DNA of 64,000 nucleotides, taken from NCBI GenBank assembly GCA_032128875.1, contig JAVLKG010000002.1, positions 672,001 through 736,000 of the forward strand, in the 5' to 3' direction. Positions within the stretch are counted from its first letter, which is position 1, and each line of letters begins with the position of its first letter. The notes beneath the pieces were generated by a model, which was given only the letters and a program-made list of their open reading frames with translations, made no database searches and was not told where the DNA came from. Of this stretch, positions 1,278 through 5,206 are shown piece by piece. Both the position numbers and the translations under genes were made by a program. This stretch comes from Candidatus Melainabacteria bacterium 17Bon1m. Lineage in GTDB: Bacteria; Cyanobacteriota; Vampirovibrionia; Obscuribacterales; Obscuribacteraceae.

Positions 1278-1467
1278 GCAATTCCTCCTTGCAAAGTCAC
1301 CAAATTCCTTATTTCAGAACGCTTCTTCAAGCGACAGGCTCGGCGTTTGCACGCAGAGCACAAGGCGAAGGTAACAGACCTTCGGTCCTGAAGTATTAGA
1401 AGGAGGGGTTTTACTTCGGATTTGAGGATAAGTCGATACAAGATTCTTAATGAAACCTTGCGACCTA

Positions 1468-1497
1468 TTGACAAATCCCGAAATCTTGCCGCACACT
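1468..1497 (+). promoter_or_regulatory. Putative sigma70 promoter for the argC leader
   Basis: TTGACA (1468-1473), 18-nt spacer, CACACT (1492-1497), about 35 nt upstream of the leader ATG. Confidence 0.5.
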
Positions 1498-1531
1498 ACA
1501 TAGGTTGATTCATCAGGTGCTCAAGAGACAG

Positions 1532-1588
1532 ATGCAGCTTATGCAAGCCCAACAAGTTATATCCCGACGCCGCCCAGGTCTCTTTTAA
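1532..1588 (+). CDS. Arg-codon leader peptide MQLMQAQQVISRRRPGLF (argC attenuator)
   Basis: 18-codon ORF (alternative ATG at 1541) with tandem CGA CGC CGC at 1565-1573, between the promoter and the terminator upstream of argC. Confidence 0.8.
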   Translation: MQLMQAQQVISRRRPGLF

Positions 1589-1636
1589 GGCCCGGCGCAG
1601 ATATGGCTTAGCTGATTTAGCACCATTTTCGAGTTT

Positions 1637-1671
1637 AGCCCCGGGTCCAAGGACCAGGGGTTTTTTGTTTT
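1637..1671 (+). terminator. Attenuator terminator upstream of argC
   Basis: AGCCCC-G-GGTC-caag-GACC-A-GGGGTT hairpin followed by a T-rich tract (TTTTTTGTTTT). Confidence 0.85.
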
Positions 1672-1697
1672 AGGGCTTGTTCAAGATGGATACACAG

Positions 1698-2753
1698 ATG
1701 AAGAAGATTGCGGTTGTCGGAGCTACAGGTTACACAGGTCAGGAGTTGATCAGAATTCTGGTTCAGCATCCCAATGTGAAAGTGCACACTGCAGTTTCTT
1801 CCACCAACAGCGGCAAGTCGTATGCGTCGGTTTATCCAGGGCTGTCAAAATTGGCCGATTTCACTTGCAGTGCTGATGACATTGATACGTTGTCTTCGCA
1901 AGTCGATCTGATTTTCCTTGCATTGCCTCATGGACTTGCGGCCAAAATGGTCAGCAAGGATGTGTTAGAGAAATGCGCGATTGTTGATCTCGGAGCTGAT
2001 TTCCGGTTGAAGAATGCCGGAGATTATGATGAATGGTACGAGTTCACTCACCCAAATCCTCAATTGCTCGATTGTTCTGCTTATGGACTGCCAGAGTTGA
2101 ACAGAGAAAAAATCAAATCTGCAAAGTTGATTGCTAATCCTGGTTGCTATGCAACCTGTTCAATTCTCTCATTGGCACCACTACTTAACGCTGGGCTGAT
2201 TGATGAGTCCACAGTCATAGTTGATGCAAAGTCTGGAGTCTCTGGTGCGGGAAGAAGTCTTTCGCTGGGAGTCCACTTCGACGAGTGTAATGAGTCCATC
2301 AAGGCTTACAAACTCGGTAGCCATCGGCACACTCCCGAGATCGAGCAAGCTCTGAATCCTTACGCGAAGAGTTCGCTGGCCATCTCGTTTACGCCACATT
2401 TGGTTCCTATGAACAGAGGAATTCTATGTACTACATATGGATCTTTAAAGAAAAAGATGTCAGATAAAGATCTCTTTGATCTCTATAGTGAATTCTATGA
2501 AGATGAGCAATTCATCAGGATCTTCGATCCGCAATCAGGCGAGTATAAATATCCAGAGACGCGTTGGGTTAAAGGATCTAACTATTGTGATATCGGACTC
2601 AGCGTCGATAAGAGAACCAGCAGAGCGATAGTCGTCGGGGCCCTAGATAATCTCGTGAAAGGCGCAGCAGGACAGGCAGTTCAAAACATGAACATCCACT
2701 TTGGCTGGCAAGAATCTACAGGTTTAACTCACGCTCCAATTTTTCCGGCGTAA
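1698..2753 (+). CDS. argC: N-acetyl-gamma-glutamyl-phosphate reductase
   Basis: IAVVGATGYTG Rossmann motif, IANPGCYAT catalytic Cys, DAKSGVSGAG, DNLVKGAAGQAVQNMN signature; start may be 1686 or 1698. Confidence 0.97.
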   Translation: MKKIAVVGATGYTGQELIRILVQHPNVKVHTAVSSTNSGKSYASVYPGLSKLADFTCSADDIDTLSSQVDLIFLALPHGLAAKMVSKDVLEKCAIVDLGADFRLKNAGDYDEWYEFTHPNPQLLDCSAYGLPELNREKIKSAKLIANPGCYATCSILSLAPLLNAGLIDESTVIVDAKSGVSGAGRSLSLGVHFDECNESIKAYKLGSHRHTPEIEQALNPYAKSSLAISFTPHLVPMNRGILCTTYGSLKKKMSDKDLFDLYSEFYEDEQFIRIFDPQSGEYKYPETRWVKGSNYCDIGLSVDKRTSRAIVVGALDNLVKGAAGQAVQNMNIHFGWQESTGLTHAPIFPA

Positions 2754-2779
2754 CAAATTTTGCAGATATCCCAGAATTA

Positions 2780-2809
2780 TTGACAGAAAAAATCCACAGC
2801 GTGTATATT
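2780..2809 (+). promoter_or_regulatory. Putative internal sigma70 promoter for the argJB leader
   Basis: TTGACA (2780-2785), 18-nt spacer, TATATT (2804-2809). Confidence 0.65.
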
Positions 2810-2832
2810 TGAATCTCAAGGAAATTTTTGAC

Positions 2833-2922
2833 ATGCAATTCAGCAAATCTCTCAGACACAACCGACGATTCCCCCGACGCCGCGCCAACGCGCTTGGGGA
2901 TTGCTCGCATACGTTGATTTAA
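2833..2922 (+). CDS. Arg-codon leader peptide MQFSKSLRHNRRFPRRRANALGDCSHTLI (argJB attenuator)
   Basis: 29-codon ORF with SD-like AAGGA upstream; 6 Arg among codons 8-17 (AGA CAC AAC CGA CGA TTC CCC CGA CGC CGC). Confidence 0.85.
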   Translation: MQFSKSLRHNRRFPRRRANALGDCSHTLI

Positions 2923-2946
2923 TACAACACTGCAAGAGATCTATAT

Positions 2947-2982
2947 TCCCCGAGTGCCCCCATCAAGGACTCGGGGATTTTT
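2947..2982 (+). terminator. Attenuator terminator upstream of argJ
   Basis: Perfect 9-bp stem TCCCCGAGT (2947-2955) / ACTCGGGGA (2969-2977) followed by TTTTT. Confidence 0.85.
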
Positions 2983-3016
2983 CTATGCATCTGTTTTTTG
3001 TTTGAGGAGATCCGAA

Positions 3017-4297
3017 ATGAATTCATTCACCACCATCATCGATGCGCATGCCTTGGCTGTTCAGGGCAAGGTGGTAGAAGCCCCTTTCAGCGGAAGCGTC
3101 ACCAGCGCAAAAGGCTTTAAGGCAGCCGGTGCTCACATCGGTGTAAAACGCAAAAGAAAAGATCTTGCTTTGATCTATAGCGAAGTTCCAGCAACTGTCG
3201 CCTGCATGTTCACTACCAACGTGATGAAAGCTGCGCCGATTCTGTGGAACCAGAGTGTTGTAGCTAAATCTCAAACAGTTCGTGGCATCGTCATCAACAG
3301 CGGCAACGCCAACTCTTGCACTGGCAAAGAAGGCCTGGAAAACGCAGAGATTATGGCTGCCACTTACGCTGATTGCATTGGTGTGAAGCCTGAGGAAATT
3401 CTTGTTTGCTCCACAGGTGTCATCGGCGTTCAACTTCCCATGGAAATCATCACGAAGGGCATCATCAACACGGCGACGTCCCTAGAGCACTCCAAGCTGG
3501 CTGGACAATTAGCAGCCGAAGCGATTATGACCACAGACACTTATACGAAACAGATCTCCGTAGAGTTCGAAGTCGGCGGGAAGAAGGTAGTACTTGGCGC
3601 GATGGCAAAAGGCAGCGGCATGATTCACCCGAACATGGCGACGATGCTTAGCTTTATCACGACCGACCTGGATATTGCCCCGCACATGCTGGAGAAAGCA
3701 CTGAAAGACAGTGGTGCCGATACCTATAACATGATTTCGGTTGACGGTGATACCAGCACGAATGACATGGTGGCAATCATGGCGAACGGACTGGCCGGCA
3801 ATGAAACTATCGTCAGCGAGGATGCCGGCTACTTCACCTTTTGCGAAGTGTTGAAGCAGGTAAACACACATCTGGCGAAAATCATTGTTCAAGACGGCGA
3901 GGGTGCAACCAAATTCTTGGAAGCCCAAGTGACATCTGTCGGATTGAAAGAAGATGCCAGACTGCTTGCACGTTCCATCGTTTCTTCCAGTCTGGTAAAA
4001 ACAGCGTTCTTCGGAGAGGACGCGAATTGGGGCAGAATCATCTGCGCAATGGGATACAGCGGCGCGAAATTTGATCCGGCTCACGTTTCAATTTCTCTGG
4101 AAAGCGCAGGCGGGATATTAGAACTCTTGAAACATGGCGAGCCGGTCTGCGTCAATGAAATTCTTGCGAAGCAAATTCTTGCCGAGAAGAACATCATCAT
4201 TCATGTGAACATGAATACCGGAATCGAGGAAGCTACCGCGTGGGGTTGCGATCTCAGTTATGACTACGTGCGGATTAATGGCTCTTACAGAACTTAG
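3017..4297 (+). CDS. argJ: Bifunctional ornithine acetyltransferase / N-acetylglutamate synthase
   Basis: NSGNAN, AIMTTDT, AKGSGMIHPNMATML (autoproteolytic Thr), DGDTSTND, DGEGATK, YVRINGSYRT; SD GAGGAG before ATG 3017. Confidence 0.97.
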   Translation: MNSFTTIIDAHALAVQGKVVEAPFSGSVTSAKGFKAAGAHIGVKRKRKDLALIYSEVPATVACMFTTNVMKAAPILWNQSVVAKSQTVRGIVINSGNANSCTGKEGLENAEIMAATYADCIGVKPEEILVCSTGVIGVQLPMEIITKGIINTATSLEHSKLAGQLAAEAIMTTDTYTKQISVEFEVGGKKVVLGAMAKGSGMIHPNMATMLSFITTDLDIAPHMLEKALKDSGADTYNMISVDGDTSTNDMVAIMANGLAGNETIVSEDAGYFTFCEVLKQVNTHLAKIIVQDGEGATKFLEAQVTSVGLKEDARLLARSIVSSSLVKTAFFGEDANWGRIICAMGYSGAKFDPAHVSISLESAGGILELLKHGEPVCVNEILAKQILAEKNIIIHVNMNTGIEEATAWGCDLSYDYVRINGSYRT

Positions 4298-5206
4298 GTG
4301 ACCGAAATGACACTGGCAACTTTTAAAGGCACGATATTACAGGAAAACTTTGATGCCCTCCCGAATTCTACTTTCGGGTTGAGTACAGATGGTGATCCGA
4401 TTGTTGTCGTAAAATTTGGCGGCAACGCCATTATGAATCCCAAAGTCCTCGATCAGCTGATTGAGGATACTTGCTCGCTCATCAGCAAAGGTGTACGTGT
4501 TGTTCTCGTACATGGTGGTGGCACCGCTGTCAATGATGCTCTTAAATCCGTTGGGAAGGAAACGCAGAAGATTGGCGGTTTGCGAGTCACAGACGATCAG
4601 ACATTGGAAATCGCTGTTGATGTTTTCACAGGCATCAATGAAAAGCTGACCGATAAGTTTTTGGCAAAAGGAGCGCAAGCACTCAGCTTTTGCTCCAAAA
4701 CTATCAATCCTTTTCTCAGCAAGAAAATGGAATTTCAAGATCCCCAAGGCAATGATGTCGACCTCGGCTGGGTCGGTGAAATTGTCGATGTCGATGCCAC
4801 CAAGCTTGATCGGTGGTTGTGGGCAGGCTGGATGCCTGTGATTTCGCCTTTCGGCAAAGATAAGAATGGGCAGCTCTACAACCTCAACGCAGATCACGCT
4901 GCGTTGGCTGTAGCGACATATCTGAATGCCGACGCCCTGATTTTCCTTACGGACGTTCCGGGAGTTTTGCGCGACGTGCAAGACCCTACTACCAGAATCA
5001 GCCACCTCACCCCAGCGCAGGCGCAAGTCTGTCTGGAAGAAGGGACGATTTCCGGAGGGATGCTTCCAAAAATCAAAAGCTGCTTGAAATGCCTAGACAA
5101 TGGCGTTGAGAAAATCGCCATTTTGAACAGCTTTGCGCCTCACGCATTGCTCAAAGGGTTTTCCGCACCTGAGAAATATGGAACAGTCCTGACACGAGCG
5201 AGTTAA
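4298..5206 (+). CDS. argB: Acetylglutamate kinase
   Basis: VVKFGGNA, VLVHGGG, GLRVTD, YNLNAD, LTDVPGV, ISGGMLPKI. Confidence 0.95.
   Translation: MTEMTLATFKGTILQENFDALPNSTFGLSTDGDPIVVVKFGGNAIMNPKVLDQLIEDTCSLISKGVRVVLVHGGGTAVNDALKSVGKETQKIGGLRVTDDQTLEIAVDVFTGINEKLTDKFLAKGAQALSFCSKTINPFLSKKMEFQDPQGNDVDLGWVGEIVDVDATKLDRWLWAGWMPVISPFGKDKNGQLYNLNADHAALAVATYLNADALIFLTDVPGVLRDVQDPTTRISHLTPAQAQVCLEEGTISGGMLPKIKSCLKCLDNGVEKIAILNSFAPHALLKGFSAPEKYGTVLTRAS

Follow-up and report, generated by a model that had tools for sequence, protein, structure and literature searches.

Probable leader-peptide attenuators sensing Arg-tRNA upstream of arginine biosynthesis genes in a member of the Obscuribacteraceae

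Candidatus Melainabacteria bacterium 17Bon1m – known as a metagenome-assembled genome only, of 7.55 Mb and 93% complete – carries a group of arginine biosynthesis genes at the start of the stretch of DNA analyzed here (64,000 nucleotides of contig JAVLKG010000002.1, positions 672,001 to 736,000; hereafter the window). The first of these, argC (1686-2753), codes for N-acetyl-gamma-glutamyl-phosphate reductase (TIGR01850, 455.5 bits relative to a cut-off of 233.6), and it is followed by argJ (3017-4297; TIGR00120, 490.9 bits), coding for a bifunctional ornithine acetyltransferase / N-acetylglutamate synthase, and by the adjoining acetylglutamate kinase gene argB (4298-5206; TIGR00761, 200.9 bits). 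These genes and all the features of the window described below are on the forward strand. Textbook control of arg genes is by the protein repressor ArgR, and leader-peptide attenuation is textbook for trp, his, leu, thr, ilv and phe genes. A preliminary description of the window, made from the sequence alone, proposed that argC and argJ-argB are each preceded by an attenuator of the leader-peptide type that senses arginine.

The two leaders do share the layout that was described, with a short upstream open reading frame (uORF), a hairpin that buries its Arg codons, and a GC-rich, U-tailed terminator in both. In leader 1, upstream of argC, the uORF has 18 codons (1532-1588; MQLMQAQQVISRRRPGLF, followed by a stop), and the putative regulatory Arg codons CGA CGC CGC are in frame at 1565-1573. 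A start codon (ATG or GTG) and the RRR run are maintained across the genus, and one relative (L028) has the synonymous variant CGA CGC CGA. In the minimum-energy fold the Arg codons are part of the 5′ side of a helix 1:2 (1554-1609), which would act as an anti-antiterminator, and a predicted antiterminator, helix 2:3 (1590-1647), pairs GGCCCGG (1590-1596) with CCGGGUC (1641-1647). The intrinsic terminator (1638-1671) consists of a hairpin at 1638-1660 followed by UUUUUUGUUUU (U6 GUUUU), with a predicted energy of -16.1 kcal/mol, and is conserved with compensatory changes.

Leader 2, upstream of argJ-argB, has a uORF of 29 codons (2833-2922; MQFSKSLRHNRRFPRRRANALGDCSHTLI, followed by a stop) in which the putative regulatory Arg codons span 2863-2883, as CGA CGA (2863-2868) and CGA CGC CGC (2875-2883); with an additional AGA codon at 2854-2856 the peptide thus has R, RR and RRR. 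The reading frame is maintained in the genus, and in some genomes an in-frame 3-nt deletion changes RRR to RR. Alternative RNA helices are seen in the folds of this leader too, as had been claimed for both: helix 1:2 (2863-2907), a putative anti-antiterminator identified by folding and covariation, and a predicted antiterminator 2:3 (2890-2957) in which GCGCUUGGGGA (2890-2900) pairs with UCCCCGAGUGC (2947-2957). The terminator (2946-2984) is a hairpin at 2946-2977 followed by UUUUUCU (U5), with a predicted energy of -19.1 kcal/mol and double changes at seven of its nine pairs. A simple consensus terminator scan listed neither the leader 1 nor the leader 2 hairpin, because one is bulged and the other long-looped.

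Both leaders had also been credited with a TTGACA promoter. Both hexamers are present (1468-1473 and 2780-2785), but a good -10 element is found only at the second, where TTGACA, an 18-nt spacer and TATATT (2780-2809) match 11 of 12 consensus positions and are conserved in the genus. The -35-like TTGACA of the argC leader was read in the sequence and has CACACT behind it as a weak -10 candidate (read by eye); a promoter consensus scan listed nothing at 1468-1473, and TTGACAAA is conserved at the 12 genus loci that contain the argC upstream region. The uORFs are preceded by weak Shine-Dalgarno sequences, in leader 1 above all.

The preliminary description counted two copies of the arrangement. 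Both are real, but the genome contains three such leaders, the third being located before argF-argG-argH on another contig (G000:C1, about 491751-491895), with the uORF MTFANYTSNNRRTRRVLLNSGPAGLR (followed by a stop) and a terminator hairpin of -19.4 kcal/mol ahead of a U-tract. A covariance model (R1) built from 15 argJ leaders, which covers helix 1:2 and the terminator and leaves out the antiterminator, has three matches in the whole genome, all of them arg leaders. Moreover, leaders 1 and 2 each fold better as a whole than shuffled sequences (z of -3.5 and -3.1, respectively), so that chance is unlikely, as had been argued earlier. The identical 11-mer that had been noted, CCCGACGCCGC, is indeed present in both leaders (1563-1573 and 2873-2883) with CGA-CGC-CGC in frame, but by itself is weak evidence, as there are eight copies in the genome relative to about 3.6 expected under a uniform model. 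A further copy on contig C4, in an S-R-R-R-G frame, was considered as a leader and rejected; it forms the 3′-terminal part of a long ORF, behind which lies a convergent terminator.

Of the 104 family genomes, 52 are matched by model R1; they represent 18 of 37 genera and include all 13 genomes of the genus. The conservation of Arg-codon uORFs in orthologous leaders that an attenuator predicts is seen in the 13 genus genomes and in the 18 family genera with a model match. There are no matches in 120 genomes from ten other families of the same class. Six genomes of the phylum outside the family were matched; the five loci examined are false positives, being AT-rich, terminator-only sites at the 3′ ends of genes that lack both an arg gene and an Arg uORF. 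Among 86 examined matches of at least 90 nt, the downstream gene codes for ArgJ in 34, ArgC in 22, ArgF in 17, ArgB in five and ArgG in three, such that 81 precede arg genes and the remaining five have no assigned gene.

This distribution bears on the simplest alternative, that these are ordinary terminators accompanied by chance short ORFs within GC-rich spacers. Its attractions are that the 11-mer is not rare, that in true cyanobacteria simple terminators, too, score 29-38 bits with model R1, and that a crude search of the genome for codon runs followed by terminators – too noisy for ranking Arg leaders, and losing the argJ leader to its ORF filter – finds RRR in 68 short ORFs upstream of terminator-like hairpins, with similar results for S and L. 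However, chance does not account for the positions of 81 of the 86 family matches or for covariation in all three helices (see below), and the gene upstream of the argC leader terminator is divergent, so that this terminator has no upstream transcript to end. We consider the chance explanation scarcely credible.

The uORFs themselves are conserved in a particular way. In 78 of the 86 matches an arg gene is combined with a uORF that contains RR. Among the distinct peptides, 76 in number, RR is present in 73 and RRR in 46, these RR counts being somewhat inflated because the most Arg-rich frame was taken at each locus. Arginine represents 16.3% of the residues of the 76 distinct peptides, compared with 5.3% in the long ORFs of the 17Bon1m genome. 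The start codons of 74 distinct uORFs in relatives are ATG (63), GTG (6) and TTG (5), the stop falls 8-34 nt past region 2, and the leaders show synonymous exchanges between Arg codons as well as an indel of 3 nt that keeps the frame. The idea that the uORF has one set frame with respect to region 2 fails for part of the leaders, with 49, 23 and five of 77 distinct leaders in one frame, a second and the third, respectively. The 76 peptides are otherwise dissimilar, sharing only the Arg run and, in most cases, a Ser-Gly that region 2 encodes.

Arrest peptides that sense small molecules in the ribosome tunnel – e.g. the fungal arginine attenuator peptide, TnaC and SpeFL – suggest another role for an Arg-rich uORF, in which the nascent peptide would respond to free arginine or some other small molecule, and runs of basic residues alone can slow ribosomes. 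Arrest peptides are sequence-specific, whereas the peptides here are alike only in the features just noted. Moreover, stalling at high arginine would turn the biosynthesis genes up, which is the wrong sign. An arrest peptide is therefore a very improbable explanation, although one we rate above chance.

The helices covary, which the preliminary description had suggested testing, with compensatory changes in the terminator, helix 1:2 and helix 2:3. In an alignment that was fitted to the structure of the model, and whose related genomes are not independent, 89.5% of cells pair in helix 1:2 and the terminator taken together, with double changes at 13 of 19 pairs and none of 500 shuffles as good; the terminator alone has 95.9% of cells paired. 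The antiterminator 2:3, though outside the model, pairs in 92.9% of cells across 77 distinct leaders, and covariation links alignment column 146 to each of its two partners. In one relative this scaffold stands before a DAHP synthase gene and carries five Tyr codons (YYYYY).

Two other readings start from this structure. In one, a factor acting in trans, either an RNA-binding protein or a small RNA, would recognize the leader, for example at CUCGGGG or CGACGCCGC, and control termination in the manner of TRAP or PyrR, with the uORFs being incidental. Consistent with this, the CUCGGGG, CCCCGAG and GYUGAU motifs are conserved as nucleotides in leaders of five different arg genes, and the family genomes without ArgR or a model match (see below) imply further regulators. 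However, the conserved nucleotides are those that build the three competing helices, and the start codon, the Arg run and the position of the stop are retained while the peptide drifts; the Tyr-codon copy before DAHP synthase also suits codon sensing and not an arginine-specific binder. A trans-acting factor is thus improbable, if the least so of the alternatives. In the other, the leader would be an arginine-binding riboswitch or other ligand-sensing RNA with the terminator as its expression platform. The excess of structure over shuffled sequences is in keeping with such an RNA, but there is no conserved aptamer-like core besides the simple alternative helices, the loops and linkers are freely variable, no Rfam family matches, and the features of the uORF are left unaccounted for. 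We regard a riboswitch as highly improbable, more so than an arrest peptide and less so than chance.

We conclude that the leaders are very probably transcription attenuators of the classical ribosome-mediated (leader-peptide) type, with charged Arg-tRNA as the signal. They have the hallmarks of such attenuators, including a uORF with a start codon, a run of codons for the end product, an intrinsic terminator, and mutually exclusive 1:2, 2:3 and 3:4 helices. Each of the in silico tests run from those suggested in the preliminary description favoured attenuation, and we therefore grade this reading as supported.

The predicted switch is seen in constrained folds of nascent RNA. When the RNA is cut before region 4 and carries no ribosome, helix 1:2 forms in the argC, argJ and argF leaders; with a ribosome set on the Arg codons, 2:3 is predicted to replace 1:2 in all three, the Arg codons being positioned so that a stalled ribosome would free region 2. 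With the ribosome set at the stop codon, the thermodynamic model permits 2:3 as well in the argJ and argF leaders, and the state corresponding to plentiful arginine thus depends on the assumed order of folding. Equilibrium folds of the full-length leaders with a ribosome mask keep the terminator every time and show no switch, so that the switch must be kinetic. In four RNA-labelled runs the DNA in question is represented by contigs of 21-48 kb that run right across it, and these runs hence provide no information on transcription or 3′ ends.

From these observations we infer a role for ribosome stalling, its timing and a response to arginine, which would operate as follows. The promoter upstream of each leader would fire and a ribosome would start on the short ORF. 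When Arg-tRNA is ample, the ribosome would pass the Arg codons and reach the stop, and region 1, which holds those codons, would pair with region 2; with 1:2 formed, regions 3 and 4 would form the terminator and the transcript would stop at the U-tract without reaching argC, argJ-argB or argF-argG-argH. Under a shortage of Arg-tRNA, the ribosome would halt on the Arg run and mask region 1, region 2 would pair with region 3 as soon as the latter is made, the terminator would be blocked, and polymerase would enter the biosynthesis genes.

A search for ArgR (TIGR01529) – also suggested earlier – gave no matches at E ≤ 0.01 in the 17Bon1m genome and found the repressor in none of the 13 genus genomes. 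In this genus, three cis elements appear to do the job that ArgR has elsewhere. In the family, ArgR is present in 22 of 104 genomes and seven of these also have the leader, so that ArgR and the leader are not strict alternatives. In 37 of the 104 both ArgR and a model match are missing, and other regulators must therefore exist. On balance we favour, with some reserve, the broader view that across the family, whose members are non-photosynthetic relatives of the cyanobacteria (Melainabacteria of the Obscuribacterales type), one modular scaffold has been copied before most transcription units for arginine biosynthesis (argC, argJ, argB, argF and argG) as a cis-encoded, protein-free substitute for the ArgR regulon, in which the codon run alone would determine which amino acid is sensed (compare the Tyr-codon copy). 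Rfam models gave no matches at gathering scores in the window, including no T-box, with only chance-level matches at 1280-3100 (E of 1 or more), and likewise none at the argF leader locus.

The leaders have counterparts in the enterobacterial trpL, hisL, leuL, thrL, ilvL/ivbL and pheL attenuators, with which they share a uORF containing a run of end-product codons, exclusive 1:2, 2:3 and 3:4 helices, and a terminator before the first structural gene. They differ from these in that arginine is the amino acid that would be sensed, that they resemble none of the Rfam leader families in sequence or by model, that one scaffold stands before three transcription units in a genome and five arg genes in the family, and that the stop codon is mostly after region 2 and not before it. 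ArgR/AhrC governs the same regulon (argC, argJ, argB, argF, argG and argH) with presumably the same logic of being off when arginine is ample, but is a repressor protein with operators in the DNA as its targets, whereas these are RNA leaders. T-box leaders have in common with the leaders here the control of an intrinsic terminator and, as proposed, the sensing of tRNA charging, but they bind uncharged tRNA directly and do not need translation, whereas the leaders here have a uORF. In some Firmicutes, T-boxes are said to govern arginine genes (PMC1262725).

A further counterpart is the Salmonella speF leader, in which orf34 has consecutive Arg codons and ribosome pausing at low arginine refolds the downstream mRNA (PMC6386406). 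A uORF with consecutive Arg codons and a downstream refolding, predicted here, are common to both, but orf34 encodes a conserved peptide of 34 codons, two of them for Arg, its target is ornithine decarboxylase (polyamines) and not arginine synthesis, and its outputs are Rho-dependent termination, opening of a ribosome-binding site and RNase G decay, and not an intrinsic terminator (PMC6386406).

The preliminary description had also raised the question of novelty, on which the absence of Rfam matches and the literature agree: full-text searches found no description of a leader-peptide attenuator of arginine biosynthesis genes, with the supplements of the attenuator surveys PMC2965389, PMC5314783 and PMC5737381, which may list arg-associated candidates, being outside their scope. 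The type of attenuation and all of its components are already known, and it is arginine as the sensed amino acid for biosynthesis genes that would be new; each component being of a known kind, the weight of the finding is below that of a new mechanism. If correct, it would add one to the amino acids known to be sensed via ribosome stalling, would account for possible regulation of the pathway in a lineage without ArgR, and would give annotators a handle on the arg regulons of uncultured bacteria. It would also provide a compact arginine-responsive RNA part, and one that looks re-programmable because the same scaffold occurs with Tyr codons elsewhere.

Several other loci in the genome were inspected. 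No Arg leader is seen upstream of carA or of the best argD match (contig C3). A MARRRRRGC uORF before an argD-like aminotransferase gene (C11) was rejected as a leader; it is unconserved in 11 genus relatives and lies upstream of a conserved promoter. The genome-wide codon-run scan is of use only for His and Ile leaders, and the hisG leader has seven His codons.

The ArgC (1686–2753), ArgJ (3017–4297) and ArgB (4298–5206) genes are all on the + strand and clear the curated NCBIfam cut-offs by a wide margin, and both argC and argJB are preceded by the layout that the preliminary description had reported, with a small upstream open reading frame (uORF) containing Arg codons, a hairpin and a terminator. 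The gene upstream of argC, encoding a TPR protein, is on the opposite strand, so no + strand gene ends ahead of argC. The argC leader includes a TTGACA (1468–1473), an 18-codon uORF (MQLMQAQQVISRRRPGLF, then a stop codon; 1532–1588) with in-frame Arg codons CGA CGC CGC (1565–1573), a long predicted hairpin carrying these codons in its 5′ strand (1554–1609), and a GC-rich hairpin (1638–1660) followed by UUUUUUGUUUU. The argJ leader has a putative promoter (2780–2809), a 29-codon uORF in the argC–argJ spacer (MQFSKSLRHNRRFPRRRANALGDCSHTLI, then a stop codon; 2833–2922), a predicted hairpin with the Arg codons buried inside (2863–2907), and a terminator (2946–2977) followed by U5; all of these features are on the + strand. 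Both leaders fold more stably than dinucleotide shuffles (z -3.5 for argC and -3.1 for argJ). TTGACA promoters had been claimed for both: that of argJ is near-consensus, matching at 11 of 12 positions, whereas the -10 element of argC is weak and a consensus promoter scan listed none there. The identical 11-mer is indeed present and in frame in both leaders, but it occurs in 8 copies genome-wide and is not strong evidence on its own.

The two leaders of the cluster are an incomplete count, because a third is located before argF on contig C1, where argF, argG and argH are grouped. Its uORF (MTFANYTSNNRRTRRVLLNSGPAGLR, then a stop codon) lies some 270 nt ahead of the argF match, with TTGACA before it and a AACUCGGGG segment, then the terminator GCUCCCGAGUUCUUCUAGGACUCGGGAG and a U-tract after it. 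A covariance model, R1, built on an alignment of 15 argJ leaders has exactly three matches in this genome (7.55 Mb in 35 contigs, 93% complete, with the window at G000:C2:672001–736000), corresponding to the argJ (E 9e-33), argF (4e-13) and argC (3e-5) leaders. No comparable Arg leader was seen upstream of carA or the best argD match. A second argD-like gene, on contig C11, encodes a class III aminotransferase (TIGR00707, 375 bits, below the cut-off); the Arg-rich uORF ahead of it was rejected, because relatives do not conserve it and its position is upstream of the gene's conserved promoter. The roughly 200-nt 5′ leader of this gene (G000:C11:112760–112960; L104:120–320) shows strong conservation in 11 of 12 genus relatives, with a small hairpin and following U-run among the conserved parts, and has no Rfam match.

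The nearest public records, in which ArgC is 86–97% identical, are metagenome-assembled genomes. We obtained argC loci from 27 of 41 related genomes. Both the argC and argJ leaders were found in the genus loci covering these regions. Leaders built in the same way precede argC or argJ in six loci outside the genus but within the family, and also in L016, the genus's own most divergent genome; the Arg-run uORFs of all of these differ considerably in sequence. R1 matches 52 of 104 genomes and 18 of 37 genera in the family, including all 13 genomes of the genus; in a class-wide sample the matches are confined to this family, with none among the 120 genomes sampled from ten other families. A phylum-wide sample added six genomes at 29–38 bits, and each of the five loci examined is simply an AT-rich terminator at the end of a gene, with neither an arg gene nor an Arg uORF; matches with such low scores therefore need a check of context. 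These weak matches trace to a terminator hairpin, AUCCCCGACUUCUUCAAGAAGUCGGGGAUUUUU, that recurs almost unchanged at the 3′ ends of genes in AT-rich genomes of cyanobacteria from other families of the phylum (five genomes, L118–L122). We examined 86 family matches of at least 90 nt, from about 88 listed, leaving out a few duplicates of loci already covered; the set combines the loci returned with the matches and 32 further stretches retrieved separately. The downstream gene is ArgJ in 34, ArgC in 22, ArgF in 17, ArgB in five and ArgG in three; the five without an assigned gene comprise two contig ends, one wrong ORF frame, one antisense terminator match and one real exception, considered below.

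An RR-containing uORF occurs together with an arg gene in 78 of these 86 matches. For three argF leaders with low scores, no suitable uORF was recorded (none called in two, one without an Arg run in the third), although by eye they read ...SRRRREFN and a stop codon. RR occurs in 73 of 76 distinct leader peptides and RRR in 46, and Arg makes up 16.3% of their residues versus 5.3% for the genome's long ORFs, figures that are favoured by a uORF picker taking the Arg-richest frame. In a test of all three frames, the longest Arg run lies in a frame that is open on its upstream side and reaches a stop 8–34 nt past region 2 of the RNA structure, and the other frames are often open for hundreds of bases. 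This frame varies relative to region 2 (49, 23 and 5 of 77 leaders in the three frames), and the peptides share little sequence outside the Arg run. Signs of coding within the genus include synonymous Arg codon changes, in-frame ATG to GTG starts, and a 3-nt deletion converting RRR to RR. CGC (45%) and CGA (31%) predominate among the Arg codons of the leaders, and they account for 37% and 12.5% of genomic Arg codons, respectively; six tRNA-Arg genes represent five different anticodons.

The predicted RNA has four regions, with Arg codons in region 1 and alternative pairings 1:2 (anti-antiterminator), 2:3 (antiterminator) and 3:4 (terminator). In an alignment of 82 leaders (77 distinct), fitted to helix 1:2 plus the terminator and thus favouring that structure, 89.5% of cells pair and both sides have changed in 13 of 19 pairs, values reached by none of 500 shuffles, with slid controls at 20–58%. 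The antiterminator – region 2 CUCGGGG with the terminator 5′ arm CCCCGAG – is absent from the model structure, and pairs in 92.9% of cells versus 22–68% when slid. Column 146 in region 3 changes from A to G with its region 4 partner (U to C) in 23 leaders, and also with its region 2 partner, either U to C (12 leaders) or through a G-U wobble; it covaries with both partners, as alternative pairing predicts. Independent alignment and folding of 15 leaders (MAFFT/RNAalifold) recovered the same two helices with six compensatory pairs.

The equilibrium fold of the full-length leader contains the terminator under every mask applied, so the choice between folds must fall while the RNA is being transcribed, as it does in the trp operon. 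We folded nascent RNAs ending just before region 4, representing the ribosome as about 29 masked nt around the A-site Arg codon. With no ribosome, 1:2 is paired and region 3 is free, such that the terminator could form; with a ribosome on an Arg codon, 2:3 is paired in the argC, argJ and argF leaders. The argJ antiterminator spans 11 bp (2890–2900 with 2947–2957) and is longest with the ribosome on earlier Arg codons. A ribosome at the stop codon also permits 2:3 in two leaders, and the outcome when arginine is plentiful therefore requires 1:2 to form before 2:3, behind the ribosome, as we infer it would.

The real exception among the R1 matches is in another genus of the family (L076; G096:C14:113747–115464, minus strand), where the same scaffold (L076:1401–1518) carries five Tyr codons (MTFYYYYYGIVNRGSPG, then a stop codon) before a gene for DAHP (3-deoxy-7-phosphoheptulonate) synthase (NF006421, 396 bits). 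The arrangement resembles a copy of the Arg attenuator that would sense Tyr, and because codon run and pathway change together it argues for codon sensing, and against the alternative that an arginine-specific binder acts on the leader.

The arg leaders share the design of classical leader-peptide attenuators and display all of their defining features that are testable in sequence. Their reading as attenuators with arginine specificity, forming a module repeated across the regulon, is supported by sequence and modelling; every available computational test favours the attenuation first proposed, and the Arg-codon leaders themselves are confirmed and extended to a third copy and to relatives. 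The lineage in which this putative module recurs has no detected ArgR (TIGR01529) in this genome or in 13 genus genomes. Within the family, 22 of 104 genomes encode ArgR (7 with both ArgR and leader, 45 leader only, 15 ArgR only, 37 neither), an inverse relation that is at most weak among non-independent genomes. In one family genome lacking the leader (G015:C206; L018), argC and the gene for ArgR share a contig and are some 4 kb apart, which places ArgR inside the arg cluster of that lineage.

Rfam 15 has no match to the arg leaders, and we found no leader-peptide attenuator of arginine biosynthesis in the open-access texts searched; one may have been described elsewhere. Among published surveys, arginine is unmentioned in the main text of PMC2965389, appears only in connection with decarboxylases in portions of PMC5737381, and has T-boxes named as its known RNA-level control in those of PMC1262725; portions of PMC8632094 describe uORF motifs for Cys and Phe as well as a carA hairpin, and no Arg leader. 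The nearest published relative in logic is the Salmonella speF leader orf34, in which two Arg codons couple mRNA folding to arginine (PMC6386406); its gene serves polyamines, and the outputs differ.

Judging from sequence, leader peptides also serve other amino acids in this lineage. A classical His leader, MPLNTRVIVETAARNHGHHHHHHHS (G000:C12:178588–178797, +), with the terminator CCCGCUCAGAAGGCGGG and U7, precedes hisG (178798–179736; TIGR00070 and TIGR03455). Outside the window, a uORF containing AIIIL (MSFAQMFTQQAISAIIILD) with a terminator (G000:C2:980018, +) lies 51 nt ahead of an ORF of 939 residues, the N-terminus of which resembles isoleucyl-tRNA synthetase, and may be an Ile leader for ileS. 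A TTG-started uORF, MSTTIIITTTIIIASCG, with a terminator (G000:C3:619973, -) places Thr and Ile codons ahead of a 436-residue ORF (C3:618487–619797) that resembles a class II aminoacyl-tRNA synthetase, of Asp/Asn type by eye.
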